64,000 nucleotides of DNA from Candidatus Marinacidobacterales bacterium (GTDB lineage: Bacteria; Acidobacteriota; Vicinamibacteria; Marinacidobacterales; DATDRI01): positions 480,001-544,000 of the forward strand of contig CBDCNP010000002.1 of the NCBI GenBank assembly GCA_965219415.1, in the 5' to 3' direction. Shown piece after piece: positions 3,872-61,173 of this stretch. The notes under the pieces were generated by a model that made no database searches, was not told where the DNA came from, and saw only the letters and a list, made by a program, of their open reading frames with translations. A program made the position numbers and the translations under genes. The number at the start of each line of letters is the position of its first letter. The stretch's first letter is position 1.

Positions 3872-3913
3872 TGCCGTTCCAACTAACGTCGCCGAGCACG
3901 TTGGCTGGTCTGT

Positions 3914-4052: not shown

Positions 4053-4442
4053 ATGTCCGCAAACAAGGATCTCACGAAGTCCATGTTCGAACGGTTCAAC
4101 GCGATGGATGCCGATGGCCTTTCGCCACTGGTCAGTGATGGCGTGAAACACAGCGCCCCGGGGACCCAGTTCGGTGTCGATCTCGAGGGGAAATCAATAT
4201 TCATCGCATATTTCCGCGAAAAAGTGTTCCCGAAGTTCGAGAAGGTCCACTTCATACCGGACAATATGTACGACGATGCCGAGGCCGGTGTGGTAGTGAC
4301 TGAATGGCACGGAGATTTCCTGACTAAGACGGGCAAGCCGTTCTCGAGCAAAGGCGTCTTCGTCGTGGCGATCACCGAGGGAAAGATCGATTGGGTACGC
4401 GAGTACTTCGACACCGAGAAAACCAAGAAAGCCATGAGCTAG
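4053..4442 (+). CDS. SnoaL-like / NTF2-fold protein
   Basis: 129 aa ending in GKIDWVREYFDT, typical of SnoaL/ketosteroid isomerase-like proteins. Confidence 0.85.
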   Translation: MSANKDLTKSMFERFNAMDADGLSPLVSDGVKHSAPGTQFGVDLEGKSIFIAYFREKVFPKFEKVHFIPDNMYDDAEAGVVVTEWHGDFLTKTGKPFSSKGVFVVAITEGKIDWVREYFDTEKTKKAMS

Positions 4443-4443
4443 G

Positions 4444-4479
4444 CCCCCTCTCCCCTCTGGGGAGAGGTTGGGTGAGGGG
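4444..4479 (-). repeat. REP-like palindromic element, copy 2 (inverted relative to copy 1)
   Basis: Reverse complement reads CCCCTCACCCAACCTCTCCCC-AGA-GGGGAGAGGGGG. Confidence 0.75.
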
Positions 4480-4505
4480 CCACGAACAACTAAGGAGGAC
4501 CGGAG

Positions 4506-11139: not shown

Positions 11140-11162
11140 CGGATAAGAGTTCCGATTGGCGG

Positions 11163-12080: not shown

Positions 12081-12156
12081 AGTGGCACGCAGTATACACT
12101 CTCAATGAACTGCCCTATACTCCTCAACAAATTTGCCGGGGATGAAGGAGAAAGAG

Positions 12157-13257
12157 ATGAAGAAAAAAGTCGAGACCGAAGTGAGTCAAGGATTCAGCCG
12201 TCGAAACCTCTTTCGCGCAGTTCTTGGAGGAACGGTGGCTTCCGCCGTCTCGTCACGCGCTTCGAGTGTCGAAGCGGCTCGTCCAACCCTTGAGGCCCTC
12301 GAGGCCGACGTCGGCGACCAAGGTATGTACGCGGTGATCACGGGGTCCGGCTCCGCCATGGCCGATCCCGAGCGAGGCAACGCCAGTGCCGCGGTGGTCG
12401 TAGATGGAACCGTTCTACAGTTCGACTTCGGCCGTAAAACGATGGACAACTTGATGCGCGTCGGGATCAATCCAATAAACATCGACTACATTTTCTTCAC
12501 CCACCTTCATTTCGACCACATCGCTACCTACGACTATTTCATCATCTCGTCTTGGATCGCGGGGCGTAGGACTCCCTACAAGGTGTTCGGACCTCCGGGC
12601 ACCGAGGCGATGTCGAACGGGGCGCTCCATCACATGCACGAAATGGACGTCCGATTCGTAAAATATATCGTCGACACCTGGCCCGACATTGCCGAGAAGC
12701 CTCCGGTGGCGGAGCCGCCCGTCGAAGTCACCGACGCCGAACCGGGTCTGGTGGTCGAGACCGACGATTTCAAGGTCACTTCGACCGCAACTCCGCACCT
12801 CAGTCCCCCCAACATGTACAGCAGAGGTTATCGGGTCGACTCCAAATACGGCTCGGTCGTCATCAGCGGAGACACTGCCCCTTCCGAGAATATGGTTGGG
12901 CTTGCCAAGGACGCCGACATCCTCATTCATGAGTGCGTCATCCCCGACTACGGTATGACGACAGCCGGCAAGTTCAGCCGCAAGGAATTCCACGTGAAGG
13001 AAACGAAGAATCAACGGACTGGCCACACCTCGCCGACCGGCCTGGGGAAACTGGCCGCACAGGCCGGGGTGAAGAAACTGGTGGCCTACCACCTCGCTCC
13101 TTACACCAGCGTGCCGGCGGCGGTGGAAATGTCCGAGAAGTACACCGGTCCCAACCCGGGTCCGGAGATCTGGTCGAAGTACATCCACGCCATGAAGAAC
13201 CAGTACTCGGGCCCGGTCATCCTGGCGGAAGACGCGATGGTGATCAAAGTTTCGTAA
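12157..13257 (+). CDS. Tat-signal MBL-fold metallo-hydrolase, RNase Z-like
   Basis: AAGGAG RBS, SRRNLF twin-arginine signal, THLHFDH, SGDT, HEC, GHTSP. Confidence 0.9.
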   Translation: MKKKVETEVSQGFSRRNLFRAVLGGTVASAVSSRASSVEAARPTLEALEADVGDQGMYAVITGSGSAMADPERGNASAAVVVDGTVLQFDFGRKTMDNLMRVGINPINIDYIFFTHLHFDHIATYDYFIISSWIAGRRTPYKVFGPPGTEAMSNGALHHMHEMDVRFVKYIVDTWPDIAEKPPVAEPPVEVTDAEPGLVVETDDFKVTSTATPHLSPPNMYSRGYRVDSKYGSVVISGDTAPSENMVGLAKDADILIHECVIPDYGMTTAGKFSRKEFHVKETKNQRTGHTSPTGLGKLAAQAGVKKLVAYHLAPYTSVPAAVEMSEKYTGPNPGPEIWSKYIHAMKNQYSGPVILAEDAMVIKVS

Positions 13258-13269
13258 GGTGGTCCCGTC

Positions 13270-14298
13270 ATGAAGGGCTTCACACGAAGAGGGTTCTTCG
13301 GCGGCCTCCTGGTAGCGCCCGCCGCCTTCGGCCTCAAAAGCGCCGAAGCCGCGAAGAGCGTGGACTTGGAACGCCCCGGCATGCGGGCGTTGATCACCGG
13401 CTCCGGATCGGCGCTCATCGATCCACTCCGCGGCAACGCGAGTGTGGCGGTGATCGTCGACGGAACGGTCCTTCAGTTCGACTTCGGCCGTCGCGCAATG
13501 GACAACCTCGCGCTGGCGGGGATCAATCCGGTGAACGTGGATTACATTTTTTTCACGCACCTCCACTTCGACCACATCGCGACGTACGACTACCACGTCA
13601 TCTCCAGCTGGATCGCAGGACGTCAGACTCCGATTGAAGTTTATGGACCCCTGGGTACGACAGAGATGTCGGACAAAGCCATCTATGGAATGCACGCGGT
13701 GGACATCGTTTTCGTCGAGAAGCTCTTGGCCGGGTGGCCGAAGCGGCTCGATCGTAGACCGAAAGATAAGCCGCCGATCGATGTGCACGATGTCGGGGCC
13801 GGGGTGGTGACGGAAACGGATACCTTCAAGGTCACGGCGGTGGAAACGCCGCACTATCGATCGATGGGCGTTCGAAGCCTCGGCTATCGAGTCGACTCCG
13901 AGCACGGATCGATCGTCGTGAGCGGAGACACCGCACCATCGGACGCGCTCGCCGAGCTCGCCCAAGGAGCAGACCTCCTCATTCATGAATGTGTGATTCC
14001 CGATCCCGGCATGACGAAGTCGGGTAAGTTCGCGGAAAAGCCTCCCGAAGACGAACCGCCCGAGGGGCACACGTCTCCCACTGAGCTCGGGCAACTAGCG
14101 CAACGTGCGGGTGTGAAGAAGTTAGTCGCCACCCACCTTGCTCCGTATACGAGCGTCGACGCCGCGGTAGAAATGTCGAGCATGTACCTCGGCCCTCGGC
14201 TGGGCGAGGAAATCTGGGGAGAATTCGTACACGCGATGAAGCAGCAATACGAGGGCCCCGTCGTCTTGGCCGAGGACGGGATGGTGTTCGAAATTTAA
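13270..14298 (+). CDS. Tat-signal MBL-fold metallo-hydrolase, RNase Z-like, tandem paralog
   Basis: TRRGFF twin-arginine signal, THLHFDH, SGDT, HEC, GHTSP. Confidence 0.9.
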   Translation: MKGFTRRGFFGGLLVAPAAFGLKSAEAAKSVDLERPGMRALITGSGSALIDPLRGNASVAVIVDGTVLQFDFGRRAMDNLALAGINPVNVDYIFFTHLHFDHIATYDYHVISSWIAGRQTPIEVYGPLGTTEMSDKAIYGMHAVDIVFVEKLLAGWPKRLDRRPKDKPPIDVHDVGAGVVTETDTFKVTAVETPHYRSMGVRSLGYRVDSEHGSIVVSGDTAPSDALAELAQGADLLIHECVIPDPGMTKSGKFAEKPPEDEPPEGHTSPTELGQLAQRAGVKKLVATHLAPYTSVDAAVEMSSMYLGPRLGEEIWGEFVHAMKQQYEGPVVLAEDGMVFEI

Positions 14299-37472: not shown

Positions 37473-37626
37473 GACGGAGCCCTTCGATACTGCCACCGGT
37501 TGCGAGTACGTCGAGTCCGACGACGTTGCGCTCGAGCGTCGGAGGCAGTAGGCTCCTACCAGCCGCACCAGTTCAGAAATGAATCTCCGCAGACACCGGC
37601 TGCTGCCCAAACACTAGGAGGACGCT

Positions 37627-38817
37627 ATGTCGGTTACGCGTCGGGCCTTCATGAGCACGTTGGGGTTGGAAAAACATGGAGCGCTTTCGCTCCCCTTGAT
37701 CGCCGCTCGCGGTCGCGAGGCGCTGGCGGCCACCGAGCCCCGCTCGCCCGCCATTCCCCCGCCTCCCGATTTGGACGAGATCCGTATCAGCAGCAACGAG
37801 AACCCCTTGGGACCGGGACCGTCGGCCATCCGTTCTCTTCGTGGGGCGCTCGATCAGACCAGGCTTTATCCGATGAATGCGCGGATATCCGACTCGGCCC
37901 TGAGGGAGCGCCTGGCCAGGAAGTTTGGCGTCCAGTCGGAGAACCTCGTGCTTGCCGCAGGCTCGAGCGAAATCCTGCGAAACGCGGTCCGTGCTTTTAC
38001 CGGGCCCAACGAGCCTCTCGTCACCGGGGACTGCTCCTTCGAGAACCCGGTCAAGGCCGCGGAACGGTTTGGGCGTCCGGTGAAGGCTATTCCGCTCACT
38101 GCGGATCTTGCGCTCGATCTGGACAAGATGGCGGGAGCCGCCATCGGAGCGGGGTTGGTCTATCTCTGCAACCCCAACAACCCTACCGCCACCGTCCATT
38201 CGGCCAACGCGGTGAAGGACTTCGTGAAGTTTGTGACCAGGGAATCGTCTTACACGCATATTCTGATCGACGAGGCGTATCACGATTATGTGACCGACCC
38301 ATCCTACGAGACGTCCGCCGAGCTGGCGACGAGGTACCGCAACGTGTTCGTGAGCCGCACGTTTTCGAAGGCGTACGGAATGGCCGGGCTGCGACAAGGT
38401 TACGCGGTTGGTGGCAAGGAAACGGTCGGCAAACTGCGAGCGCTCAAACTAACGGTGGACACCAACATTCTCGGCATGGCCGCTGCCATGGGAGCTCTCG
38501 ACGACGACGCGCACATCGAGGAAGAAGTGGCCCGCAACACCGCGGCCCGCAAGTACACGCTCGATTTCTTCCGGCGTGCCGGATACCGAACCACCGACAG
38601 TCAGACGAACTTCATCTTCGTGCACTTGGGGAGTCCTGCGAAAGAATTTCGGGAATCCTGCGAGAAGTACAAGATCAAAGTGGGAAGGGACTTCTCTCCC
38701 TACGAGAAAACTCACGCACGGATCTCCATCGGGACCATGGAGGAGATGCGTCGGGCCACCGAGGTCTTCCAGCGGGTTCTCGGTACGTCCGCCACCGACT
38801 CTGCCGGGCAAAGGTAA
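37627..38817 (+). CDS. Tat-signal HisC-like PLP aminotransferase (class I/II)
   Basis: TRRAF signal, SNENPLGP, CNPNNPT, DEAY, RTFSKAYGMAGLR. Confidence 0.9.
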   Translation: MSVTRRAFMSTLGLEKHGALSLPLIAARGREALAATEPRSPAIPPPPDLDEIRISSNENPLGPGPSAIRSLRGALDQTRLYPMNARISDSALRERLARKFGVQSENLVLAAGSSEILRNAVRAFTGPNEPLVTGDCSFENPVKAAERFGRPVKAIPLTADLALDLDKMAGAAIGAGLVYLCNPNNPTATVHSANAVKDFVKFVTRESSYTHILIDEAYHDYVTDPSYETSAELATRYRNVFVSRTFSKAYGMAGLRQGYAVGGKETVGKLRALKLTVDTNILGMAAAMGALDDDAHIEEEVARNTAARKYTLDFFRRAGYRTTDSQTNFIFVHLGSPAKEFRESCEKYKIKVGRDFSPYEKTHARISIGTMEEMRRATEVFQRVLGTSATDSAGQR

Positions 38818-38827
38818 GGAGGTCGAC

Positions 38828-40006
38828 ATGCCACTTACGAGACGGAGTATGTTGAAGAACCTGGGAGTCGGCGCCGCGGGAATGTACGCGAGCTCGCTCG
38901 TCAGCACACGTTGGCAGGAGTCCATCGCCTTCGCCGCGGAGACCTCCCTGCCACTAGAGACTGTCATCAACCTGCACAACAACGAGAATCCCCTGGGCCC
39001 CGGGCAGCCCGTCCTGGACGCGGTCGACGGCGGCCTCGGTTCCGATGGCGCCAAGACGGGTCGCTATCCGTTCGCCTATGGGGACGCGCTTCACGAGGCG
39101 ATCGCTGCGAAATTCGGAGTGAAGCCCGAGAATGTCCTGATCGGGGCGGGCTCGACGCAGATCCTGGTGGACGCCACTCACGTCTACACTTCGAAGGAAA
39201 AGGCCCTGGTGGGATCTCTCCCCACCTATGAAGAGTGCTTCGGCTACGCACGCTTCATGGGTCACCGCTCCAAGGCCGTCCCACTGACGAGCGAGTTCCG
39301 TATGGATCTGGATCAGACGCTCCACGCCTGCAAGGGAGGGGGGCTTCTCTTCTACTGCAACCCCAACAACCCCGCCGCCTCAATCGTCGCCCCCAGCGAC
39401 ACGAAGGAGTTCATTCCCCGCGTCTTGAAGGCGACGTCCGATCTCCACATCCTCGCAGATGAAGCGTATTTCGACTACGTAACGACACCCGGGCATGAAA
39501 CGCTCATCCCGATGGCGGTCCAAGAACCCCGACTCATCGTGTCCCGTACCTTTTCCAAGGCGTACGGGATGGCCGGTCTTCGGGTCGGCTATGCCATCGC
39601 CCATGAGAAGACCATCGAAGAGCTCGAGAAGTTCCACATGACGCTCGGGGTCAGCGGCTTGAGCTATGCCGCCGCCATCGGCGCGCTGGAGCGCGATCAA
39701 AAGGATCCTTCTTTCATTACTAATGAACGCGCTCGGAATCGGAAGGCGCGGGACTATACGCGCAGCTGGTTCCACGAACGGGGGTACAAGGATACCGACT
39801 CGCAGGCGAACTTCCTCTTCGTCGACGTCCAGATGCCGGTGGAGGATTTCCAGGCTGGATGTCGGGAGCACGGTGTGAGGGTGGGACGTCCTTTCCCACC
39901 GCTGTGGACGCACTGCCGCACCTCGATAGGAACCTTGGAGCAGATGCAGAGAGCCACCAAGGTGTTCGAGAAGGTACTGGGCGCGAGGGCTAAGGCCGCC
40001 GCGTAG
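38828..40006 (+). CDS. Tat-signal HisC-like PLP aminotransferase, tandem paralog
   Basis: AAGGAGG RBS, ATG 38828, TRRSMLK signal, NNENPLGP, CNPNNP, DEAY, RTFSKAYGMAGLR. Confidence 0.9.
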   Translation: MPLTRRSMLKNLGVGAAGMYASSLVSTRWQESIAFAAETSLPLETVINLHNNENPLGPGQPVLDAVDGGLGSDGAKTGRYPFAYGDALHEAIAAKFGVKPENVLIGAGSTQILVDATHVYTSKEKALVGSLPTYEECFGYARFMGHRSKAVPLTSEFRMDLDQTLHACKGGGLLFYCNPNNPAASIVAPSDTKEFIPRVLKATSDLHILADEAYFDYVTTPGHETLIPMAVQEPRLIVSRTFSKAYGMAGLRVGYAIAHEKTIEELEKFHMTLGVSGLSYAAAIGALERDQKDPSFITNERARNRKARDYTRSWFHERGYKDTDSQANFLFVDVQMPVEDFQAGCREHGVRVGRPFPPLWTHCRTSIGTLEQMQRATKVFEKVLGARAKAAA

Positions 40007-48781: not shown

Positions 48782-50014
48782 CTATAACGCTAATTCAGCG
48801 GGTGCGCCCCCCAAGGCCTCGTCAAAAAAGTCCATGACCCGATTCCAGAAGATCCCGGGGGGTGGGTAGTTGTCGAAACCATGCTCGCCGCCTGGCAGCA
48901 ACCATCGTTCACTGGGTAGACCCGCCTCGCGGCGAAGATCGTCGAGATACTCGGAGTGGTAAGGCGGCACTTGATCGTCGGCGTCGCCGTGAATGAACAA
49001 CACCGGGGCCTGAATCTCGGTAATGACCTCGGCGGGACGGATGCTCATAAGATCGACGCCGGCGCGCCAACGAACCGCGACGCTGAGCGGATAGCGGAGC
49101 CACGTCCCCACGCCGCGCGAGCTCAACATCTCACCGGCGGCGGCCCAAAAGTCCGAGTAGGGTGCGTCGAGGGCCAAGGCGGCGAGGGCGGGGTCCTCGG
49201 CGGCGGCAAAGATGGCGGACGCCGCGCCGTTCGAGGTTCCAAAAACCACCACCCCATCCGGCCGGACCGATTCCTGTTGGCGGACCCACTTAGTGATGCT
49301 GGCTATATCGAGACGCTCGTTCACGGTAAAGGTCACGAAATCACCTTCACTCGCTCCTCGGCCGCTCAAATCCATGGTGAGAAAACCGTATCCGCGACGA
49401 TACCAGTGTTTCGCGCTCTCCAAACCTTGGAAACGCGATGCCCACAAGCCATGCACGAAGACGCCGACTCGCCCATCGCTCCCTTCGGGAGGCGGGACGA
49501 ACCAACCTCGAAGATTGAAACCGCTAGACGAGGCAACCTCCACGTCCTCGTAAGGAAGTCCCAGGTCCGCCGGGTTTCGGAGAAACGGTTTGAGCACCAA
49601 CTGAACATCCCGGGAGACCTCCCCCTCTCTCTCTACGGTCAGCCTCACCGCATCCCCCGCCTCGTACTCGCTGATAAACAGACTGTGAAGCTCTCTTCCG
49701 TCCAGAAACACAGTCCCATCGACGCGAGTGATCACGTCGCCGGACCGCAGTCCGATTTCCCGTCCCGACTCCCATGGTCTGCGGATTTGCAAGCCTTCGG
49801 GATTTTCCGAACGTTCGGTCCAACCCAGAAACGCAAAGCCGGGCACCGGCCCCCCGTCCCGAACCGGGGTCCCGAAGAAGTCCTCACCCGGAACACGGCG
49901 CTGTCCCGTGAGATACGAGAGCGCCATCCGATCCACGGTGTAGGCAGCGAATCCAAGGAGACCCACGAGCAAAACGGTGAGCAACTTCCAGACCCAACGG
50001 CGTTTGTGGCTCAA
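48782..50014 (-). CDS. Membrane-anchored PDZ + alpha/beta hydrolase
   Basis: N-terminal TM, PDZ (GLRSGDVITRVDG), LRGWFVPP, GTSNG nucleophile, HGDAD, GGEH. Confidence 0.85.
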   Translation of the reverse strand: MSHKRRWVWKLLTVLLVGLLGFAAYTVDRMALSYLTGQRRVPGEDFFGTPVRDGGPVPGFAFLGWTERSENPEGLQIRRPWESGREIGLRSGDVITRVDGTVFLDGRELHSLFISEYEAGDAVRLTVEREGEVSRDVQLVLKPFLRNPADLGLPYEDVEVASSSGFNLRGWFVPPPEGSDGRVGVFVHGLWASRFQGLESAKHWYRRGYGFLTMDLSGRGASEGDFVTFTVNERLDIASITKWVRQQESVRPDGVVVFGTSNGAASAIFAAAEDPALAALALDAPYSDFWAAAGEMLSSRGVGTWLRYPLSVAVRWRAGVDLMSIRPAEVITEIQAPVLFIHGDADDQVPPYHSEYLDDLRREAGLPSERWLLPGGEHGFDNYPPPGIFWNRVMDFFDEALGGAPAELAL

Positions 50015-50112
50015 GAACGTTCCTCCTTACATACAGGCTTAAGAGGGCATCATAGCCATCGGGCGCCGACCGAGCAAAGCGGCGTGACTGTGCTACATTA
50101 GCCCTTCGCTTC

Positions 50113-50538
50113 ATGTCCACGACCTTTTCCCGCTCGATGCGCTCGCTCGAACGCGACGGGTTTCATTTCACTCTGGCCGCTTTACTCTTCGCTACGCTGC
50201 TTCTCGCTGCGTGGGGCGCCTGGTTTTTTCTCGCCGCAATCCCCGTGTATGCGGTGACCAATAACTTCCGTATCGATACGAGCGGTCCCTCGACAAGAAT
50301 CCTCGCGGAGTTCGATGTCGGCGAAGCTCGTGCCGTCCGGCCGCAGCAGAATGCATGGCTTCGTTCGAACGACACGCGCGCACTGTCCGCGACGGTTGCG
50401 CGAGTCAGTGAAACTAGAGTCGAGCTCATCGTTCACGAACCGATTTCTCCGAACCTACCAAACCAAGGCCAAGTCGAGATCGAAATAGAAAGAGCAACGC
50501 CGTCGACACTCCTGCTTCGTTCGATCGGACGCGACTAA
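50113..50538 (+). CDS. Short HlyD-like membrane-fusion/adaptor protein lacking the central coiled coil
   Basis: MSTTFSRSMRSL, a TM with WGAWFF, and C-terminal GQVEIEIERATPSTLLLR; directly upstream of the C39 ABC exporter. Confidence 0.6.
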   Translation: MSTTFSRSMRSLERDGFHFTLAALLFATLLLAAWGAWFFLAAIPVYAVTNNFRIDTSGPSTRILAEFDVGEARAVRPQQNAWLRSNDTRALSATVARVSETRVELIVHEPISPNLPNQGQVEIEIERATPSTLLLRSIGRD

Positions 50539-50549
50539 GGCTCCGAACT

Positions 50550-53215
50550 TTGCGCGCCCGACATCGTTTCTTTGCACCGGAGGTGGTCCAATCGTCCGCG
50601 ATGGACTGTGGACCGGCCGCCCTCAAGAGCTTGTTGGACGGCTTCGGGATTCCGGTGAGCTACGGCCGGCTACGAGAGGCCTGCCAAACCGATGTAGACG
50701 GCACCTCCATCGACACATTGGAAGACATTGCGGTCGAGCTCGGCCTCGAAGCCGAGCAGATCTTGGTGCCTACCGATCATGTTCTCCTCCCGGCGGCGCA
50801 TGCGCTACCCGCTTTGGCGGTTGCCGAGCTGCCAAACGGTGGGACGCATTTCGTCATCGTGTGGAGTCGACACGGTCGACTCGTGCAGGTCATGGATCCC
50901 GCCTTCGGCCGAAGATGGATCTCCGAGGAGCGGTTCTTGTATGAGCTCTACGAGCACACCATGCTGGTCCCCGCCGCCGCATGGCGTGAGTGGACGGTCG
51001 GGAGCGAGGCGCGCGGTGCCATCGGGTCGAGGCTCGATGCCCTGAATGTTCCGAAAAACACTTCACGTGATTTGATCGAACAAGCGTCAGCCCGTCCCGA
51101 TTGGAAGGCTTTGGCAAGACTGGACGCTGCCGTCCGGGCAACCGACTCGCTCGCGCGATCGGGCGGCATCGGTCTCGGCGATGAAGCAACGCGTGTTCTG
51201 AGAAGCCTCATCGAAAGCGGCGATATCCCGGAAGACTTTTGGTCGGCGCGCCCCCCTGATGATGATGGGGATGACGCTGATGAGGAGTCGGAGCAAGAGG
51301 AGCACGTCTGGGCACGAGGCGCGGTGCTAGTCCGAGTGCGTGGCCGTCGCCCGTCGTCCACCGACTCCTCCGAGCGCTCAACCGAAGAACTATCCCCAGA
51401 GCTCGTCGCGGCTCGTGAGGAACCTACCGCCCGGCCCGGTAGAGCGTTATTCAAACTCCTTCAGGCCGATGGACGGCTCTCCCTGACCGCTTTGGCCCTC
51501 GCCTTTTTCGTGGTAGCCGGCGGTCTCGTGATCGAAGCACTACTCTTTCGTGGCCTACTGGAGCTGGTTCCAGCGCTCGGCTCATCCACGCAACGGCTCG
51601 GTGCCTTGTCGGCGCTCGTAGCTTTCGCCTTGTTTCTCTTGCTCTCGAGCTCCCCATCGCGGGAGGCATCCTCCGTCTCGGGCGACGGCTCGAAGGCCGG
51701 CTGCGCACGGCGTTCCTAGCGAAAATCCCTCGTCTTGGGGATCGTTACTTTCGAAGTCGACTGATCTCCGATATGGCAGAGCGCAGCCATAGCGTCCACG
51801 GCCTGAGGCGTCTCCCGAATCTGGGTGAGGCCTTCATCGCTTCTTTTTTCGAGCTGACGTTGACGGTTGCAGGAATTATCTGGCTCGCCCCCGCAAGTGC
51901 CCCGGTTGCGCTTTTCGCGGGTGTGCTCGCGATCGGACTGCCGCTGGCAGGTCAACCGGTTCTGATGGAAAGGGACCTTCGCGTGCGGAGCCACCTGGGC
52001 ATCCTTAGTCGCTTCTACCTCGATTCACTGCTAGGGCTGGTGGCGGTGCGGGCCCATGCCGCTGGGCCTTCCATCCGAAACGAGCACGAGGCGGAGCTCG
52101 TGCAGTGGACGAGAGCGCGTTTGTCATTCCAGAGATCCGTGGTCGGTGTCGAGGGCATCCAGGCCCTGACCGGATTCGGGGTTGCCGCCTTCCTCCTATT
52201 GAGTCACCTGAATCGGGGAGGAGACCTGGGGATCGTGTTGCTCTTGGTCTACTGGGCGCTCAACTTGCCGTTTCTCGGTCTCACCATCGCTCAGCTTGCT
52301 TGGCAATACCCGGCCCATCACAACGTCACACTTTGCTTGACCGAGCCGCTCGGTGCGCCCGACGACGAGTCAGACCCGAATTCTCACACAGCAACAAAGA
52401 ACGACCCCGGAAGGAAAACGGGCGCCGCGATTCAGATGCGAGAGCTGAGCGTGCGAGCCGGCGGCCACATCATCCTCGATCGTATCGATCTCGAGATCGA
52501 TCCGGGCAGTCACGTGGCGGTGGTGGGTCATTCCGGCGCGGGCAAGTCGAGCCTGTTCGGGGTCCTCCTCGGCTGGCACCGAGCGAGCTATGGAGGGGTC
52601 CTGATCGACGGCGTCCCCCTGGAGGGTAGCGAGCTCGGACGTCTCCGTTCGGGAACGGCGTGGGTCGATCCGTCGGTTCAGGTTTGGAACCGCTCACTGT
52701 CCGACAATCTGCTGTATGGGCACGAGGGGCCCGCCATGTCTCTCGAGATGGCCATCGATCAATCCGATCTCCGCGACGTACTGGAGTCCTTGCCGCAAGG
52801 CCAGGAAACGCTGCTGGGAGAAAACGGCGGATTGGTTTCAGGCGGTGAAGGCCAAAGAGTTCGGCTCGGCCGCGCGATGATGCGATCGTCGGTGCGCTTG
52901 GTTCTCCTGGATGAGCCGTTTCGCGGCCTTGGGCGCGAACAAAGGGCCGAGCTGCTGGCTCGTTGTCGGGAACTTTGGAAACACGCCACTCTGCTCTGCG
53001 TCACTCACGAGATCGCCGAGACCGATTCGTTCGATCGCGTGCTCGTTATGAACGGTGGAAAACTCGTCGAGGACGGCGCACCGGAATCACTCGCTGCCCA
53101 GGCAAGCTCTCGCTACCGCAACCTGCAGGAGTCCGAAAAAGCGATCGCCGGCATATGCAGTGGCGAGTCTTGGCGACGGCTCGAGCTCGTCGATGGCAAG
53201 TTGGCCGAGCGATAG
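50550..53215 (+). CDS. Peptidase C39-containing ABC exporter (PCAT); frameshift near 51645
   Basis: Q-SSAMD-C, HFV and MDP catalytic residues; TMD; GHSGAGKS, VSGGEGQR, LLDE. The two track ORFs join via LELPIAGGILRLGRRLEGRLRTAFLAKIPRLGDRYF. Confidence 0.88.
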
Positions 53216-53217
53216 AA

Positions 53218-55138
53218 ATGTCTACACCCGATCACGAATCCATACGCCACCTCTCGTGGCCGACCGAGGAAATGGCGGAGGGGTTGGCCCTCCTGGCACG
53301 ACGCGCGGGCCTCGGCCCTCGTAGCGCGCAGATACCTTCCCTAGACCAGAGCTCACGAGACGACACCTTCTCTCATTGGGATGGCGGCCAGCGCAGCGTG
53401 GATGGGGCTCGAAGCCCAGCCCGTCGAGTCCACCTATCCGGAGCTTCCCGGCTTTCTCTTGCGATCGGGGCCGGCGGTCGTTCGCTTGCCCGCACCGGGC
53501 ACGAATCGTTTTCTGCTGTTGTTGAAAGGCAAGGGGAAACAACGTCTCGATCGTCGGAAACGACCGGGCCATCCACTCACTGCCTCTCGCGCGGGTGGAA
53601 GGAATCCTGGCCCCGCACGAAGCAAAGCGAGTCGGCGTTATGGTCGACAAGCTTCTCGATCGTATCGGGCTCGTCGGACTCGATGGCACCCGTCGCCGGC
53701 AACGCGCTCGAGAAGTCATGGTGCGCGAGCGATTAGGCAAGGCTGTGGTGGGCGGTTCTTGGATATTGCGCTTGCCTGCGAGCGCTAGAACCAAGTCGCT
53801 GATGAGGCACGCGCACCTCCCCCATTACTTACTCGCCTTCATTGGGGCGCACACCGTTCAGTATCTACTGTGGATCGCTTCGTGGTGGGTGATCGGGCGC
53901 GGCGCGCTCGAGGGACGTGTAAGCTCGGGATGGCTGGCCGCTTGGGTACTTCTACTGCTTACCATGATCCCATTCCGACTAGTCGCCACCTGGTTCGAGG
54001 GTTTGTTGAGCATTCGGGCCGGAGCATTACTCAAACAAAGACTTCTGCAAGGAGCGCTTCGACTCACCCCAGACGAAATTCGGCACGACGGGGCCGGTCA
54101 TCATTTGGGTCGTGTACTCGAATCGGAGGCGGTCGAAGATCTCGCCCTCACGGGAGGGTTCTTGGCGTTGATCGCCGGGATCGAATTGATCATCGCAACC
54201 TTCGTACTCGCAACGGGTGCGGGAAGCGGGTACCACGTCGTACTTCTCGGCGCCTGGCTCGGTTTGGCGTGGATGACGGGCCGCCATTTCTTTCGGCGGC
54301 GGCGGCGGCGGTGATGGCCGGCCAGGCAAGTGCTGGGTTGTTGGGCGGTCGGACTCGGCGGCATGCTTCTCGCCTATCGAGCGCTCGACAAGCTCGTCGA
54401 TGGCTTCTCCGATCTGGCTGATGCGGTCATCGCCTGGCAACAGGTGTCCCTCCTTTCCACGGCGCTCGGCGACGAGAAGCCCCCGGCGAGCCAGCATTGG
54501 ATATCCCCCCGGATACAGGACGCCCCTCGACTCTTCTCGAAGCCGACGCGATCGGTTTTCGTTATCCCGATCGAACGTCCCCGGTTATCCAGGAGGCGAC
54601 TCTCAGGATCTCGGTGGGGGAGCGAGCGATCCTCGCTTCGCCATCGGGCGGAGGCAAGTCCACGCTGGTGTCTCTCTTGACCGGGCTCCGCACGGCAGAT
54701 TCAGGTTCGATGCTTCTTTACGGCCTCGCCCCGGAAAGGCTCGGCGCCCAACGTTGGACGCGAAGAGTCGCCGCCGCCCCACAGTTCAATGAGAATCACG
54801 TGTTCACCGAGACCTTCGCCTTCAATCTCCTGATGGGTCGCGGCTGGCCGCCGAAGCCTGCCGACCTAGAAGACGCGGAAGGGTTGTGCCAGGAGCTCGG
54901 CTTGGGTGGGCTCATCGAGAGAATGCCGGGCGGGCTTTTCCAGCTGGTCGGCGAAATGGGCTGGCAACTCTCTCATGGTGAGAAGAGCCGACTCTACATC
55001 GCGCGGGCACTGCTCCAGGGAGCCGACGTCGTGATCCTCGACGAGAGCTTTGCCGCGCTGGACCCGGAGAATTTCCGCCGGTCGCTCGAATGTGCCCTCG
55101 AGCATGCTCCCAGCCTTCTTGTAACAACCCATACCTAA
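53218..55138 (+). pseudogene. Second ABC exporter (N-terminal domain, TMD, NBD) with several frameshifts and an apparent internal deletion near 54310
   Basis: Fragments 53218-, 53381-, 53595-54314, 54330- and 54497-55138; PSGGGKS, LSHGEKSR, ILDESF. Confidence 0.8.
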
Positions 55139-55306
55139 CGTTCGTGGGTGCGCTCCCACGCCGGATTTTGCCCTCGGGGTGTGGGCTTGACACCACGACG
55201 ACTTTCTTGTACGCAGGTCCTGCGGCTGTCTGGCCTGTTCAGCGGGGGGATGTTCCCACTGTTGCAGCGGGTCAGTTTCTTACCCGTTAGGGGGGGCGAA
55301 AGCCAC

Positions 55307-55360
55307 ATGAAGGTCAAGACAAGTATCAAGGCGGGGCCCAGCATCCGGAGGGGCCGGTAG
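55307..55360 (+). CDS. Putative exported peptide precursor MKVKTSIKAG-PSIRRGR (17 aa)
   Basis: Purine-rich RBS (AGGGGGGG, 55289-55296), ATG 55307, TAG 55360; directly downstream of the PCAT pair and followed by a terminator. Confidence 0.65.
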   Translation: MKVKTSIKAGPSIRRGR

Positions 55361-55391
55361 CCTCGACCTAAGCAACTTACGGTGTGATCTG

Positions 55392-55424
55392 GCGAGCAAC
55401 GGGTTCTCGTTGCTCGCTTTTTTT
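55392..55424 (+). terminator. Rho-independent terminator
   Basis: GCGAGCAACG-GGTTCT-CGTTGCTCGC followed by T7. Confidence 0.88.
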
Positions 55425-55432
55425 GCGGCTGG

Positions 55433-56131
55433 TCAACGCCCTGCTGCGCGGTCCTTGCTGAGACGACTCGCGCTCTTCTTGAACAGGGCCTTTACGTCCG
55501 GTCGCGCCAGGAACGAGCTGGAATGCTCGGGAAGGGCGCTGTTTCGAATCCACTCGACCTCCTGGGCCGCCTTTGCGAAAGCCTCGACCGCCTCCTCTGG
55601 ACGCCCAAGCGCCTGATAAGCTTCTCCGAGCGTGGCATAGCCCGCATAGAGTAGCGGCCTTCCGGAGAATCCCTCGGCGATTCGCACCGACGCCTGCGCC
55701 TCGGTCTCCGCCGCCCCAGCGTTTCCTTGTGCCAGGTACACCTCTGCTAGCGCTGCGGCGGCGCGTGCTTCGATTACACGGAGCCGGGAGTTGGCCGCCT
55801 CCCTCTTGGCCTTCACAAGAGTACTTCTTGCGTCGGCAAGTCGTCCCTCAGCCAGATAGACCCGCGCCAGCTCGACCCCCGATAAGATCTGCATTCTCCT
55901 CTCACCGGCCCGCGCTGCGGCTTCCCCACCAGATTTACACTTGGCGCGCGCTTGCCTAATATCGCCACGGAGCCGGTGCAGTCTTGACTGACCGAGAAGA
56001 ATAAGAGGTAGCAGGTCTTCCGCAAGGGCATCGCCAGCCAGCTTCGCGGCCTCGCCCAAATTCTTTTCTGCTGCCTCGAACTGACCCAGTGTGGTCAATA
56101 GGTGGCCAAGGTGAGCCTTTACATCGGCTAC
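55433..56131 (-). pseudogene. C-terminal fragment of a TPR protein, 5' part missing
   Basis: TPR helices (LGHLLTTLGQFEAAEKNL, LARVYLAEGRLADA, LGEAYQALGRPEEA). The upstream part of the track ORF is only the antisense of the neighbouring gene. Confidence 0.75.
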
Positions 56132-57142
56132 GCAGGGTGAGGTGATCGCCAACGATCTCATCCTCAAGGCAGAAACGGTCCGTATCGAAGGGACCATCGA
56201 GGGGGATCTGATCGCGGCCGCCCAATCGGTCACGGTGACCGGCCGAGTCGGCGGCGACGTAATCGTAGCGGTCCAGAAACTGAACGTGGACGGCCGGGTC
56301 GATGGGAACGTGCGAGCCGGGGCCGAGTTCATCGATCTGAAGGGGTTCGTTGCGAGGAATGTCACCGTGGCCGGCGAAAGCGTGGAGCTCCACGCCGGTG
56401 CGGTAGTAGATGGAACTTTTCCGAGAAAAGCAACCTCGATGGACGCATAGGGCGCGATCTCATCGTTTTTGCGGCAAAGAGCCGCATTAACGGCCGGATC
56501 GGGGGCACCGCCCGGTTGGCAGGAGGATCGATCAGCATTGATCCCGACTCTGAGATTGGAGGCGACGTCCGCATCTTCACCGGTAAAGATCCGGACATTT
56601 CCCCCGAAGCGACTCTTGCGAGCGATCCGGAAATCGAGATCATCCGGGAAACACCTGAGTATGCGAGTGCAGGGTCTTATCTGTGGCCGATCCTCTTCTG
56701 GGCGGCGGCCTTTGTGTACGGTTTAGTGATACTGCTCGTGCTGCCAAGATTCTTCGCTGGCGTGCTCAGCCGGATACCGAGGTACGGCCTTTCCATCGGG
56801 ATCGGAGCCGCCGCCCTCGTCGCCGTCCCGGTGGTGGCGACGATAATTAGTCTTACTCTGGTCGGACTCCCGGTTGGAATCCTCACCTTTGTGGCTTATG
56901 TCGCGGCCGTCTACTCGGCGCAAGTCTTCGTTGGAACGTGGCTGGGACGAGAGCTGTTAGGACCGCCGGTGGGGCAGGGCGATGCCATCGGAAGGCTCGC
57001 CCTGGGGCTGGCCCTGATCCACGTCGTGAAGCTGATTCCGTTCGTTGGGTCGCTGGCGGATCTAGCGGTATGCTTGTGGGGCCTGGACGCGCTCACCCTG
57101 TACTTTTTCGAGCCTCGCGCGGCGCAGACCGCGCCGGCCTAG
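56132..57142 (+). pseudogene. Bactofilin-like beta-helix repeat + C-terminal membrane domain protein, 5'-truncated and frameshifted
   Basis: IEGTIEGDLIAAAQSVTVTGRVGGDV...VDGNVRA repeats, then a multi-TM C-terminus (LTLVGLPVG, IPFVG). Confidence 0.72.
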
Positions 57143-57165
57143 GTAGTCTGGATTCCAAATAAGAG

Positions 57166-57684
57166 ATGGTATTGAAGGCGATACAGCAGTTTTTCGATAC
57201 CAAAATTCAGCCTGCTACGGGCATCGCCCGAACAGGTTCGGCTGGCTCGACCGCATCGGAGCACTCCCTGCAACTTGCCACCGCCGCGCTGCTGATCGAA
57301 ATGACGCGGGCCGACTTCAAGGTCGAAGAGAGCGAGCGGCGCATGGTGGGTGACGCCATTCGGCGCGCTTTCGATCTATCGCCTGAGGAAACCGCGGAGC
57401 TCATTCGTCTCGCCGAAGAGGAGTCGCAGCAATCGGTTTCGATTTACGACTTCACCCGGCTCATCGATCGGGGCTTTGAATTAGGGCAGAAAAAACACAT
57501 CGTGGAGTTGCTCTGGAGGGTAGCGTTCAGCGACGCCGAGCTCGAAAAACACGAGGAGCACCTCATCCGCAAGATCGCCAAGCTCATTCACGTCCCGCAC
57601 CCGGATTTCATCGACGCCAAGCTCAGGGCGAAGGAGTCTCTGAAGCACGAGGCGTCCGAGGAAGCGCCGCCGTCAACAACCTAG
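57166..57684 (+). CDS. TerB-family protein
   Basis: LATAALLIEMTRAD, LWRVAFSDAELEKHEEHLIRKIAKL. Confidence 0.88.
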   Translation: MVLKAIQQFFDTKIQPATGIARTGSAGSTASEHSLQLATAALLIEMTRADFKVEESERRMVGDAIRRAFDLSPEETAELIRLAEEESQQSVSIYDFTRLIDRGFELGQKKHIVELLWRVAFSDAELEKHEEHLIRKIAKLIHVPHPDFIDAKLRAKESLKHEASEEAPPSTT

Positions 57685-57686
57685 GG

Positions 57687-58757
57687 CTAAGCGGTGGAGA
57701 CGGCATCCGCGATGAAGCCACCTACCTCCTTGGTTGGCTTGGCCGCATCCGGGCCCACCAAGTCGGCGGTCAAGAAACCCTTCTTCATGGAGGCCGCGAT
57801 CGCTTCGTCGATCGCAGCAGCCTCCTCACTCAAATCAAAAGAGTAGCGAAGCATCATCGCCATCGAACCGATGGCACCGATGGGGTTCGCAATTCCTTTT
57901 CCAGCGATGTCGGGAGCGGAGCCGTGCACCGGTTCGTAGAGCCCAACGCTACCCCCGATGCTTGCCGAGGGTAGAAGCCCCAAAGAGCCGGCCAACACCG
58001 ACGCCTCGTCACTCAAAATGTCGCCGAATAGATTCCCCGTCACCATGACGTCGAACTGGCGGGGGTTTGTGATGAGCTCCATCGCCGCCCGATCGACGTA
58101 CATGTGATCGAGTCGGACGTCGGCGTATTCTTTCCCGATGGATTCGACAACCTCGCGCCACATCTTAGACGTCTCGAGCACGTTGGACTTGTCCACCGAA
58201 GTGACATGGCCTTGCCGCCCTTGCGCGGCCTCGAAAGCGACCCGGGCGATCCTCTCGACCTCTGCACCGGTGTAGACCAGGGTGTTCCAGGCGCGAGCAG
58301 CCGCTCCGTCCCCTTCCCTTCCCCGCGGCTCGCCAAAGTACACGCCGCCGATGAGCTCCCGGACGATGAGCACATCCAAACCCTTTAGTGCCTCATCGCG
58401 AAACGGTGAGCCTTCGGGATTGAATTGCGACACGATGGGACGAAGGTTCGCGAAATTGCCCAGTAGGCGCCGCAGTTCCAGCAGGGCCGCCTCGGGCCGC
58501 TCACTGGGAGGGAACTTGTCATAGGCCGGATCGCCCACCGCGCCTAGAAACACCGCCTGGCTCCCGAGACAGGCGTTTCGCGTCTCGTCGGGGAAGGCCT
58601 TGCCAAACTGGGCGTAGGCCCGCGTTCCAAACGGGTGCTCCGGCGCCGAGAGCTCATGGCCGAAACGACTCGCCACGGCCTCGAGTACACGGATGGCCTC
58701 TGCCGTGACCTCGGGTCCGATGCCGTCTCCTGGAAGGACTGTTATTTCGAGCTTCAT
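57687..58757 (-). CDS. leuB: 3-isopropylmalate dehydrogenase
   Basis: LPGDGIGPEV, NLRP, VDKSNVL, NLFGDILSDEAS, EPVHGSAPDIAG. Confidence 0.96.
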   Translation of the reverse strand: MKLEITVLPGDGIGPEVTAEAIRVLEAVASRFGHELSAPEHPFGTRAYAQFGKAFPDETRNACLGSQAVFLGAVGDPAYDKFPPSERPEAALLELRRLLGNFANLRPIVSQFNPEGSPFRDEALKGLDVLIVRELIGGVYFGEPRGREGDGAAARAWNTLVYTGAEVERIARVAFEAAQGRQGHVTSVDKSNVLETSKMWREVVESIGKEYADVRLDHMYVDRAAMELITNPRQFDVMVTGNLFGDILSDEASVLAGSLGLLPSASIGGSVGLYEPVHGSAPDIAGKGIANPIGAIGSMAMMLRYSFDLSEEAAAIDEAIAASMKKGFLTADLVGPDAAKPTKEVGGFIADAVSTA

Positions 58758-58796
58758 GGTCCTCCTTTATAACCAGTGAACGCGGTTTTCCAAACC

Positions 58797-58826
58797 AAAA
58801 AAAAGGGGCGCGCTGGGCGCGCCCCC
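58797..58826 (-). terminator. Intrinsic terminator in the leuB leader (probable attenuator)
   Basis: Minus strand GGGGCGCGC-CCA-GCGCGCCCC followed by T8, about 40 nt upstream of the leuB ATG. Confidence 0.82.
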
Positions 58827-58850
58827 GAACCCCTGTCGAGAACCGAAGGA

Positions 58851-58934
58851 CTATGTGGAGTTGTTAAGGACGTGGGTAAGGATGTAGCGGGATGATAAAG
58901 CGGCTTCGATCGTTGGATGGGATTGGCACCGCAT
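58851..58934 (-). CDS. Candidate leuB attenuation leader peptide
   Basis: MRCQSHPTIEAALSSRYILTHVLNNST*; I/L/T/V codons near its end, stop about 25 nt before the terminator. Confidence 0.4.
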   Translation of the reverse strand: MRCQSHPTIEAALSSRYILTHVLNNST

Positions 58935-59271
58935 AATAAGTCTTACGGGCCTCAAGTGGACCCTCGGTCGAATTAACCCAACAGAGGAACGATACGAGCG
59001 CATGTTAAGTAAGCTAGGTTGGGCAGAGTTATCATAGGGATCCCGGGACGATCTGTCAAGCATGAAGTCTTCATTCGGTGATCTTGCGGGGTCCCTCACT
59101 AGGCTGAAAAACCCGCCCTGGCTCATGCTTAGCAGTAGGCGATTCAGGCAAGTCATTTAATTACAACAATTACGGCGGAAACAATCGGGCCCGACTTTCC
59201 CGCGGGTCGACTCACGGCCCCACCAACCATTTGCCCGTTTCTCGACAGCAGACTAACATCGAGCCACCCGC

Positions 59272-61173
59272 ATGACCTCTATCGAAGAACTCGAACAAGA
59301 GTTGGCCGCACTCGCCCGGGACGAGTCGTCTGTCGAGAAACGCATCGATCTGCTCAACAAGCTGGCCTGGGAGATTGGCTACCAGAACGTAGATCGAGCC
59401 GCCGAGCTGACAGAAGAAGTCAAGACATTGGCAACCGAGCGTTCCTACCGGAAGGGCATCGCCTTCAGCCGGTTGAACGAGGCCTTCGGCGATTACTACT
59501 TCGCGAAGCACCAAAGGGCGCTTGTCCGTAGTCGCGAGGCCCTCGATCTGCTCCGCGAAATCGGCGAGCGGGGCGGTGAAGCAGACACCCTCTTCGGGCT
59601 CGGCATGGTTCATTGGTCTCTGGGCGACTACGAAAAGGCGCTCCAACACATGCACGATAGCCTGGATTTACTCCGCGATCTGGCGAACCCGAGCAGAGAA
59701 GCTTGGGTCGTCACTTCGATCGGCGGGGTCTACGAGAATCTAGGCGACCTGGACAAGGCGTTGGAGTTTCACAACCGAAGCCTCGAGATTTTCCGATCCT
59801 TGGGCGATCGAAACGGTGAAGGACGGTCGCTCACCGGTATCGGTACGGTCTTCCAACGGCAGAACGAGCAGGCGCGCGCCCTCGACTACCACCGTAGAGC
59901 GCTGACCATCTTTAGAGACGTCGGCAACAAGATGGGTCTCTCTCGCGTGCCTTAAACGATATCGGGACCCTCCATCAGGCGCGAAACAAGTTCGACAAGG
60001 CCCTTCAATTCCACACCGAAGCGCTCGAGATCCGGCGACAGCTCCGCACGAGGCACGCCGAGACGACGAGCCTCATCAATCTAGGGAAGCTCTACAACCA
60101 GAAAAAAGAGCCCGAAACGGCGCTCGGGTTTCTGGAACAAGCCCTGGCGCTTTCTACCGAGCTGGGTGCCAAGCCGAAGACGTACCAGTCTCACGAGGCG
60201 CTCTCCGAGACCTACGCCGCTTTGGGCGACTATGCCGTGGCACTCGAACACGAGCGCTCCTTCCACCGCATCAAGGAGGCCGTCTTCAGTGATGAGACCA
60301 CGACGCGATTGAAGAACCTCCAAGTTAGCTTCGAAGTCGAAAAGGCGGAAAAGGAAGCGGAGATCCACCGATTGCGGAACATCGAGCTCGCCGATGCACT
60401 CCGAAAGCTAAAGGAAGCCCAGGCACAGCTGATCCAATCGGAGAAGATGGCGGCGGTGGGCCGACTGGTCGCCGGGGTTGCCCACGAGGTCAACACGCCG
60501 ATCGGCGCCATCCAGAGCAACACCAACGTCTCGCAGCGCGCCGTCGAGAAGATTGCTCGAGCGCTAGACTCGGGTCGTTCTATCGACGAGCTCAGAAGCA
60601 ATCGAGACTTGAAACGAGGGTTAGACACACTAAAGGTGAACAACGAAACGACCGAGTCGGCCCGGACGAAGAATCTCAGAGCTCGTGAACCGCCTGAAGA
60701 ACTTCGCTCGACTCGACGAAGCCGAGTTCAAGCTAGTCGACGTCCATGAGGGTTTGGAGAGCACCCTGAGCCTCATTGCACCTCAATGGAAAGACCGCAT
60801 CCGGGTGATCAAACAGTTTGGGGCGCTGCCCAAGATCGAATGCTACCCCAACGAATTGAACCAGGTGTTCATGACCTTGCTCCTCAGTGCTTCGGAAGCG
60901 ATTGAAGGCGAAGGAACGATCACCGTCGAGACCGCAACCCATAACGGAGAGGTCTCGGTAACGACTGCGGACACCGGCAAAGGCATACCACCCGATGAGC
61001 TCGAGAAGATCTTCGACATAGGGATCAGTCAAAAGGGTCCCCAGCTACGGATGCACGCCGGCCTCGCCAACAGCTATGCGATCGTCGAACGACACCGCGG
61101 GAATATCAAAGTGGAGAGTGAGCTCGGTAAAGGGACCACCTTCCGAATCCGCCTACCGGTGAGACAAACCTGA
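59272..61173 (+). CDS. Soluble TPR-repeat sensor histidine kinase; frameshifts near 59950 and 60665
   Basis: N-terminal TPRs, [26 protein letters not shown]-box, [21 protein letters not shown]; split over three track ORFs. Confidence 0.85.

Follow-up and report, generated by a model that had tools for sequence, protein, structure and literature searches.

Ultra-short KAG peptide precursors linked to a peptidase-containing exporter cassette, and the decay of one such system in a Marinacidobacterales genome

The system described here centres on a micro-open reading frame (micro-ORF) of 17 codons in a 64,000-nucleotide (nt) stretch of DNA from a Candidatus Marinacidobacterales bacterium (contig CBDCNP010000002.1, positions 480,001 to 544,000). 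This stretch is called the window, and all coordinates are positions in it; its home genome (8.05 Mb, 3 contigs, G+C ~60%) is also coded G000. The micro-ORF encodes MKVKTSIKAGPSIRRGR and lies beside a peptide-cutting export pump. Its membership of a widespread family of very short precursors, here termed KAG peptides, is genuine. Taken together, the evidence probably describes an uncatalogued family of ultra-short exported precursors tied to an exporter cassette whose C39 peptidase would cut after Gly10, with the system decaying in this genome and the micro-ORF surviving as a relic.

Occurrence of the KAG peptide family

The first-pass annotation of the window had proposed the micro-ORF as an overlooked precursor served by the neighbouring exporter. 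The ORF is present at 55307-55360 (ATG AAG GTC AAG ACA AGT ATC AAG GCG GGG CCC AGC ATC CGG AGG GGC CGG TAG). A lack of conserved KAG micro-ORFs near homologous exporters was to count against that proposal; such ORFs were in fact found beside homologous pairs of peptidase-containing ABC transporter (PCAT) and partner, at 8 of 16 loci fetched from relatives and at 36 of 80 loci in a wider set. A widened leader motif, searched in six frames, matches the home genome once, at the micro-ORF itself. Chance origin of the micro-ORF is excluded.

Homologues of the N-terminal PCAT piece occur in 21 of 41 related genomes (counts over this set include G007, on which no claim rests). Micro-ORFs with the same first ten residues lie 3' of the second ABC gene (ABC2) in the eight positive loci. 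The one in the sister species G001, of the same genus, encodes MKVKTKLKAGWSIRRGRGK; the other seven encode MKVKTKVKAGPGTGGGHD, MKVKTRVKAGPSSDRGTGF, MKVKTRIQSGSGGNQFNHYP, MKVKTRIQAGWKGKKF, MKVKTRIRSGGHGGCGKQF, MKVRSRIQAGPGDGKQY and MQVKTRIRSGWSGQHGKQF. All eight carry a Shine-Dalgarno-like site, and an inverted repeat ending in a T-run was seen by eye 3' of each. Among the remaining eight loci, four stop at a contig edge just past ABC2, and the micro-ORF of G038 lies 250 nt outside the fetched stretch.

A profile built from 12 intact PCATs retrieved at least 578 relatives from species-representative genomes. The best 80 loci were analysed; they span all acidobacterial classes, Chloroflexota, Planctomycetota, Rhodothermales, Myxococcota, Methylococcales and large sulfur bacteria. 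With the leader motif slightly widened, 80 ORFs appear within 7 kb of the cassette at the 36 positive loci (1.03 Mb scanned), and 26 of the 44 loci with full flanks hold such an ORF. Of these 80 ORFs, 27 follow ABC2 and 40 are upstream on the same strand; another 7 occupy the opposite strand, and the other 6 are placed elsewhere. In Terriglobia the micro-ORF is 5' of the operon.

A degenerate DNA pattern gave 14 matches in 10 of the 41 relatives, and the reversed-pattern control gave 0. All ten pattern-positive relatives possess the PCAT (10/10), and none of the 20 PCAT-negative relatives has a pattern match; related genomes are non-independent, and no statistical test was applied to this co-occurrence. 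In a phylum-wide sample the pattern is found in 3 of 401 genomes, again with 0 for the reversed control. Both genomes new in this sample hold the PCAT, in one case 2.8 kb from the micro-ORF.

None of 10 scanned precursors reaches a curated cut-off in Pfam or NCBIfam. The sole match, for the repeat-type precursor of locus L066, was to ribosomal protein L36 at 19.5 bits against a cut-off of 70, and an origin as an L36 relic was rejected. A literature search, with most subscription journals and supplements outside its scope, found no description of the family. The KAG peptide family appears undescribed.

Anatomy of the leader and core

The family consensus is M-K-[VI]-K-[TS]-x-[VI]-K-[AS]-G, after which comes a tail of 4-20 residues that is hypervariable. 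Composition was counted over 62 distinct single-core peptides (14-30 aa; 67 instances); the motif by which they were found constrained positions 1-10 but permitted more residues than were seen. Met1 and Gly10 are invariant, and Lys2, Val/Ile3, Lys4, Thr/Ser5, Val/Ile/Leu7, Lys8 and Ala/Ser9 are near-invariant. Entropy is at most 1.2 bits at positions 1-10 (position 6 excepted) and 2.9-3.7 bits at positions 11-16, so the boundary between conserved and variable parts falls directly after Gly10.

Codon usage places the constraint on the peptide. Gly10 is encoded by GGC (35), GGT (19), GGG (7) and GGA (6); all four codons are in use for Ala9, and at Val/Ile3 and 7 both GTN and ATH codons occur, with all four Val codons represented. 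Third codon positions thus vary freely under fixed residues. A ribosome-binding-site-like tetramer lies 4-16 nt upstream in 59 of the 67 instances. The idea that the conserved stretch is untranslated, as a regulatory DNA or RNA element or a chance ORF, has the small size of 17 codons in its favour, and it can practically be dismissed on these codon and tetramer counts, the empty reversed controls in 41 and 401 genomes, the single motif match in 8.05 Mb and the lack of any Rfam match (E up to 1) in 54900-55700.

Counting back from the predicted cut, position -1 is Gly in 62 of 62 peptides and position -2 is Ala (53) or Ser (9). Position 7 (-4) is hydrophobic (Val 43, Ile 12, Leu 7), the finding motif having allowed V, I, L, M and T there. 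Position 4 (-7) is Lys in 53, Arg in 4, Gln in 4 and Asn in 1. According to PMC10885120, ComA and LahT need hydrophobic leader residues at -7 and -12 (ComA also at -15), and the double-glycine types are GG, GA and GS. The first-pass annotation had called the KAG leader far shorter than classical double-glycine leaders, and by these criteria it does stand apart: the -4 residue is hydrophobic, as in classical leaders, -7 is Lys and there is no -12 position. Because of the -7 Lys and the absent -12 position, the leader cannot bind as the ComC or LahA leaders do. Alternation of basic and beta-branched residues suggests that it may instead form a strand.

Cores differ between lineages. Those of Terriglobia read xxxWGA, and those of Pyrinomonadaceae xGxG(L/I)DP(H/N)G, with up to 11 tandem genes of differing tails in L092. 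In the window's order the tails are rich in Gly, Lys and Arg and often end in Phe or Tyr, with a C-terminal GK(Q/K)(F/Y) in the window's relatives.

Five loci also hold long ORFs in which KVK(T/S)xVKAG, 4-15 variable residues and NHNQT(V)xGL are repeated 3-9 times:
L066:2225-2725 and 3864-4481, repeat-type long relatives
L116:5154-5429, repeat-type long relative
L091:4726-4941 and 5201-5476, repeat-type long relatives
L093:4670-4963, repeat-type long relative
L089:1136-1354, repeat-type long relative

These may be repeat proteins, or else precursors with several cores that would require another cut before Asn. In the Atlas they fall only into clusters labelled 'hypothetical protein' and lacking Pfam assignments (309, 113 and 193 members). 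Proteins of ~390 aa with TPR_10/12 repeats form a cluster (cluster 12) spanning 8 loci, including all 5 repeat-precursor loci, and one of them has a SET domain. At L128 (G034:C1:3208796) a KAG leader, MKVKTRIQAG..., runs without a stop into a long TPR-repeat ORF. Gene fusion, loss of the stop or an error in sequencing could explain this.

The exporter cassette and expression signals

The features of the locus are as follows:
50113..50538, + strand: mini-HlyD, a 141-aa membrane-anchored adaptor remnant (no Pfam/NCBIfam match; partial similarity to the HlyD of G005)
50550..51719, + strand: PCAT 5' part, with C39 peptidase, ~170-aa helical insert and start of the membrane domain (PF03412; tblastn against G001)
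51620..53215, + strand (second frame also given from 51773): PCAT 3' part, membrane domain and ATPase in another frame (G001 alignment; ABC_tran E 1.3e-20)
53212..55138, + strand: ABC2, a second ABC half-transporter, pseudogene (blastn/tblastn against G001; ABC_tran E 3.3e-18 for the last piece)
55187..55192, + strand: TTGACA hexamer, possible -35 box (sequence reading; kept in G001)
55290..55296, + strand: G7 run, G-rich ribosome-binding site 10 nt 5' of the ATG (sequence reading)
55307..55360 including TAG, + strand: micro-ORF MKVKTSIKAGPSIRRGR, 10-residue KAG leader and 7-residue core (motif search; relatives)
55391..55425, + strand: intrinsic terminator common to the convergent gene (12-pair stem with 7 G-C pairs at 55391-55418, then T7)
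55433..56131, - strand: receptor-type Ser/Thr kinase with TPR, 3' remnant of the last ~230 residues (G001 homologue alignment)

Across the family, the precursors are genetically tied to a distinct cassette of three genes: an HlyD-type adaptor, a PCAT of ~900 aa (C39 peptidase plus helical insert) and ABC2, which carries a dead C39-like domain. In the window, the C39 domain with its Gln, Cys, His and Asp is real (PF03412, E 4.2e-22), and these residues align to those of PCAT1 (4ry2, E 1e-10) and ComA. Gln5, Cys11, His91 and Asp107 are invariant in 38 of 38 domains (mean column identity 74%). ABC2 was correctly described as devoid of a C39 catalytic Cys. It has no C39 match, and hhalign relates its N-terminus to the C-terminal half of C39 alone (probability 86%, E 4.8e-6); no His stands in the His column and the Cys part is unaligned, which marks a dead C39-like domain.

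Between peptidase and membrane domain the PCAT has an insert of ~170 aa (window 50970-51530, residues ~140-330), conserved in alignment A5. It is modelled as a helical domain (mean pLDDT 85.9; 93-98 for the first 100 residues), and Foldseek found no PDB match to the model at E 0.001 or better. This insert may be what reads the unusual leader. When the C39 domain (alignment A2) was predicted in complex with the 30-aa precursor belonging to it (A3), two runs, made without controls, scored 0.00 and speak neither for nor against binding.

The HlyD-like gene named in the first pass is such a gene in part. The membrane anchor and a C-terminal barrel part are kept, and what remains is a 141-aa stub. 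Its N-terminal 55 aa share 38% identity with a 403-aa HlyD-family protein of G005 (E 6e-7). In a five-sequence alignment with adaptors of ~400 aa (34 invariant columns), ~250 internal residues are gone, including the lipoyl part and the coiled-coil hairpin. G001 likewise has a short form (154 aa, L022:1482-1943), and other genera have an HlyD of ~400 aa. Because it is common to G001, the deletion is older; since the short adaptor gene of G001 is open and its exporter intact, an adaptor that lacks the hairpin may still be functional.

The micro-ORF has its own ribosome-binding site and the strong terminator that the first pass had noted. The TTGACA hexamer is there and is kept in G001; a sigma-70-type promoter was not called by a promoter scan, in the window or in G001. 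By eye, the hexamer 17 nt past TTGACA is TACGCA in the window versus TATATA in G001. A hairpin of the same size lies 3' of the G001 micro-ORF.

The spacer between ABC2 and the micro-ORF measures 168 nt. Against the G001 locus (L022), spacer positions 55160-55270 show near-identical stretches, including TTGACA and ~55 nt around it. Identity of the two genomes is 85.6% in this block and 81.5% over the whole spacer, which does not exceed the 82% average of coding sequence. A 70-aa ORF (55148-55360) opens in frame with a GTG at 55148 and has its stop in common with the micro-ORF, and automatic annotation may report this ORF in place of the 17-codon gene.

Decay of the system in this genome

The first-pass annotation took the PCAT and ABC2 to form a heterodimeric exporter, which does not hold for this genome, where the genes are not intact. 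Measured against G001 (82% nucleotide identity), the PCAT lies in two frames, and ABC2 is in at least five frame pieces with ~72 codons missing. The break in the PCAT frame, near 51620-51656, separates the peptidase from the pump: by tblastn, residues 1-358 of the G001 protein match in frame 3 and residues 347-880 in frame 2, at 84% identity. ABC2 changes frame at least four times (near 53380, ~53550 and ~54450 among others), with pieces in frames 1, 3 and 2 and a stop inside the tblastn alignment. It has also lost ~220 bp (~72 codons) at ~54310, where blastn finds 14 nt against 234 nt in G001. In the convergent kinase gene, residues 987-1216 of the G001 homologue align at 59% identity to 56131-55439, and residues 1-986 are not found next to the remnant. 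The home genome has no C39 domain beyond that of the window. All these genes are open in G001 except for the shortened adaptor (PCAT frame of 929 aa, or 880 aa from the conserved start; ABC2 of 709 aa), and a single open PCAT frame is also found in most relatives.

Sequencing error as the cause of the broken frames was largely rejected, as contigs of two studies reproduce the breaks. Contigs from runs X1 and X3 match 50000-59800 with no gaps and at most two other letters. A ~99% identical strain in two further studies (runs X7 and X11) carries +C after 51643, the base that is absent from the window there, and bears a different 1-nt loss at 51893. An X7 contig joins 53307 to 56168, so that ABC2, the micro-ORF and the kinase remnant are gone, and depth in X7 and X11 is about zero there. 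This strain further shows +TT after 53283 and +10 nt after 56415. ABC2 and the micro-ORF are thus a presence/absence polymorphism within one species.

The picture is of a locus under relaxed selection. Since the genes of PCAT, ABC2 and the kinase survive only as pseudogenes or remnants, and the genome has no further C39 protease, the micro-ORF has most likely become a relic recently and is neither processed nor exported any more.

Proposed mechanism and alternative explanations

Where the system is whole, the C39 domain would bind the ten-residue leader and cut after the invariant Gly10, and the PCAT/ABC2 pair with its adaptor would pump out the short core, here PSIRRGR. Cleavage after Ala/Ser-Gly by the C39 domain is the best inference from the sequences, and the cut site at Gly10, as first proposed, is plausibly right. 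The conserved/variable boundary fits the release of PSIRRGR from a 10-residue leader; the further expectation, of an exporter working in this very genome, is not borne out. The core is probably unmodified and would more likely be a signal than a toxin. Nothing was found in support of an antimicrobial role.

Several observations weigh against this account. Of the 44 full-flank loci, 18 show no KAG ORF, and among the 14 DNA-pattern matches 7 lie far from the PCAT or on another contig. The leader ends in AG or SG rather than the canonical GG, GA or GS, and it offers no hydrophobic -7 and -12 residues. The long relatives could be repeat proteins, since the Atlas model of one aligns, at low confidence, to a curlin-repeat cluster (TM 0.75). 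As to decay, at least three of the frame changes fall at short runs of 3-4 nt, and one of the matching studies may be the source of the assembly. A shared sequencing artefact is thus a slight possibility at these short-run sites, but neither the 220-bp deletion nor the truncated kinase can be explained in that way.

An unlikely variant is that KAG peptides are RiPPs (peptides made by ribosomes and altered after translation), and that enzymes encoded elsewhere, or the kinase or TPR neighbours, modify the cores ahead of C39 cleavage. PCATs commonly serve modified peptides (PMC10885120). Fixed core residues (xxxWGA in Terriglobia, GxDP(H/N)G in Pyrinomonadaceae, GK(Q/K)(F/Y) in the window's relatives) and the TPR_10/12 proteins at all five repeat-type loci, one with its SET domain, would suit such a role. 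The first pass had seen no adjacent modifying enzyme, and indeed there is none at the locus. An all-against-all clustering of 2792 ORFs of at least 120 aa from the 80 loci and the window likewise gave no general modifying enzyme; the only general clusters are ABC proteins (81 of 81 sources) and HlyD (75 of 81). No radical SAM, LanM, YcaO, P450 or similar protein appeared when 12 representative proteins of the larger clusters were compared with Pfam. Cores of 4-7 residues also leave little room for recognition. With no general modifying enzyme linked, unmodified peptides are the simplest reading.

It is rather unlikely that the conserved N-terminus is itself the working part and stays uncleaved, as a small cationic protein, an amyloid or curlin-like beta-strand unit, or a regulatory leader ORF. 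The strand-like alternation of basic and beta-branched residues and the long relatives, with their 3-9 KVK(T/S)xVKAG...NHNQT units and the curlin-like model, would fit a structural role, and the 40 of 80 ORFs upstream on the same strand, together with the 5' position in Terriglobia, a leader ORF. Against this, the C39 tetrad does not vary in any of 38 domains, and such constancy implies that a substrate is cleaved. Hypervariable tails, and tandem copies with different tails (up to 11, in L092), resemble precursor libraries. The Atlas model is weak (pLDDT 0.58, pTM 0.31). In the window's lineage the ORF comes after the operon and ahead of the terminator, so it cannot act there as an upstream leader ORF.

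A working heterodimeric PCAT in this genome, cleaving after KAG and secreting the cationic heptapeptide PSIRRGR as a signal or antimicrobial, is very unlikely. The intact micro-ORF, ribosome-binding site and terminator, the intact C39 catalytic residues and the open genes of G001 all speak for it. They are outweighed by the PCAT frameshift, the at least four frame changes and ~72 lost codons of ABC2, the recurrence of these breaks in contigs of two studies, the deletion of ABC2 and the micro-ORF in the sister strain, the lack of a second C39 domain in the genome and the altered -10 hexamer.

The neighbouring receptor kinase

It is possible, if doubtful, that KAG peptides are secreted cell-to-cell signals and that their receptor would be the convergent membrane Ser/Thr kinase with a large extracytoplasmic TPR domain. 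The G001 kinase is 1229 aa from stop to stop (1219 from the first Met), and contains Pkinase and TPR domains; one hydrophobic stretch, at residues ~367-385, separates the two. In 9 genomes, which belong to two families, the end of an orthologous kinase-TPR gene (TPR part E 1e-48 or better) is no more than a few hundred bases away from the micro-ORF; for one or more of them, as on contig C218 of G020, the kinase-adjoining micro-ORF is on another contig than the cassette. Kinase genes also flank the precursor arrays of Pyrinomonadaceae (L091, L092 and L116).

A kinase domain is present at 16 of the 80 loci. From the 77 kinase matches counted over the 8 Mb of the home genome, ~7% of loci would be expected to have one by chance. 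The neighbourhood is suggestive of a ligand-receptor pair. The receptor interpretation is weakened by the relatedness of the genomes by descent, by the abundance of kinases and by sensor domains that differ between lineages.

Comparison with known systems

Among the closest parallels are ComC/ComAB and BlpC/BlpAB of streptococci, in which a short unmodified peptide loses its leader to the peptidase of its own exporter after a pair of small residues; for KAG peptides this cleavage is predicted. The C39 domain of the window aligns with the ComA structures 3k8u and 8hf4. In both kinds of system a sensor kinase gene adjoins, though the KAG neighbour is a Hanks-type Ser/Thr kinase and not a histidine kinase. 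The KAG exporter also differs from the ComA type in that two paired genes encode it and an adaptor is added. ComC has a leader of about twice the length, with hydrophobic residues at -4, -7, -12 and -15 on a helix (PMC10885120), whereas the KAG leader has 10 residues, is basic and strand-like, and bears Lys at -7.

In gene layout the KAG cassette equals the NHLM cassette (TIGR03794/03796/03797), described as an HlyD-like protein, an ABC transporter with peptidase and one without (Haft 2010, PMC2887384). TIGR03796 is the best NCBIfam match of the intact G001 PCAT. Intact relatives nonetheless score far under the curated cut-offs: 155.9 against 853.3 bits (TIGR03796 for the G001 PCAT), and 90.7 against 709.4 and 34.5 against 156.2 for the other two members, ABC2 and the adaptor. 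This combination of NHLM layout and low scores makes the KAG cassette a separate family. NHLP and Nif11 leaders exceed 70 residues, against 10 in KAG precursors, and among the 10 precursors scanned no NHLP- or Nif11-type match reached a curated cut-off in NCBIfam or Pfam. The KAG PCAT further differs by its ~170-aa helical insert, for which Foldseek gave no PDB match.

Class II microcins such as MccV are exported from Gram-negative bacteria by a PCAT with an HlyD-type adaptor (CvaAB). RaxX/RaxB of Xanthomonas (bioRxiv 10.1101/442517) is similarly a diderm system in which a PCAT and adaptor serve a ribosomal peptide, like the KAG cassette. RaxX and MccV precursors have 60-100 residues and classical GG leaders; KAG precursors have 14-30 residues, and no RaxST-like modifying enzyme is linked to them. 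Multi-core precursors of the cyanobactin PatE type carry recognition sequences around their core cassettes. The long KAG relatives are comparable in repeating an N-side KVKxxVKAG, a variable core and a C-side NHNQT. No PatA/PatG-type protease or macrocyclase is linked to the KAG loci, and the ORF in the window is a single core ending at the stop.

Flanking genes and other observations

The flanks are open and whole on both sides of the locus, with IlvD, an esterase, an S9 peptidase, TerB and, from the isocitrate/isopropylmalate dehydrogenase family, a dehydrogenase of 356 aa. The S9 peptidase (48782-50014, - strand), which is of the S9/S15-type alpha/beta-hydrolase kind and has a PDZ domain, is divergent from the cassette. 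It was considered as a second protease and rejected: it adjoins the cassette only in close kin (L022/L038, L036, L037/L039 and L045) and at no other of the 80 loci. Being confined to the window's own family, this adjacency reflects local synteny.

Long overlapping same-strand ORF pairs occur elsewhere in the window (4506-8361, 9862-12080, 12133-14298 and 37500-40006), and across the genome partial kinase matches sit side by side in at least six pairs. Together these hint at many more frameshift-split genes, either pseudogenes or assembly errors. All four runs show a 4-10-fold rise in contig depth at 57848-58174, and numerous loose ends fall at 57898-57944. The peak lies inside the gene of the isocitrate/isopropylmalate dehydrogenase family and presumably marks a motif common to many organisms in the samples.

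Significance

KAG peptides appear to be an undescribed, PCAT-exported type of peptide that is novel in its leader, cleavage and export being predicted from sequence. If the inference holds, PCATs recognise a ten-residue leader without the helix anchors thought to be required, and the rules for finding exported peptides and for designing leader tags would become wider. Gene callers skip ORFs of 14-20 codons, so this class of secreted peptides would go unseen in current annotations; it would span Acidobacteriota of soil and sea, Chloroflexota, Planctomycetota and the large sulfur bacteria, with at least 578 cassette loci. The window itself is a snapshot of the death of such a system, with independent frameshifts and deletions in sister strains.

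Should the receptor interpretation be true, Acidobacteriota and other diderms would possess a quorum-sensing-like circuit made of a PCAT exporter, a 10-residue leader and a Hanks-type kinase. Peptide signalling is not known from the phyla concerned. Hypervariable cores, tandem arrays and receptor kinases together suggest strain-specific signalling or competition.

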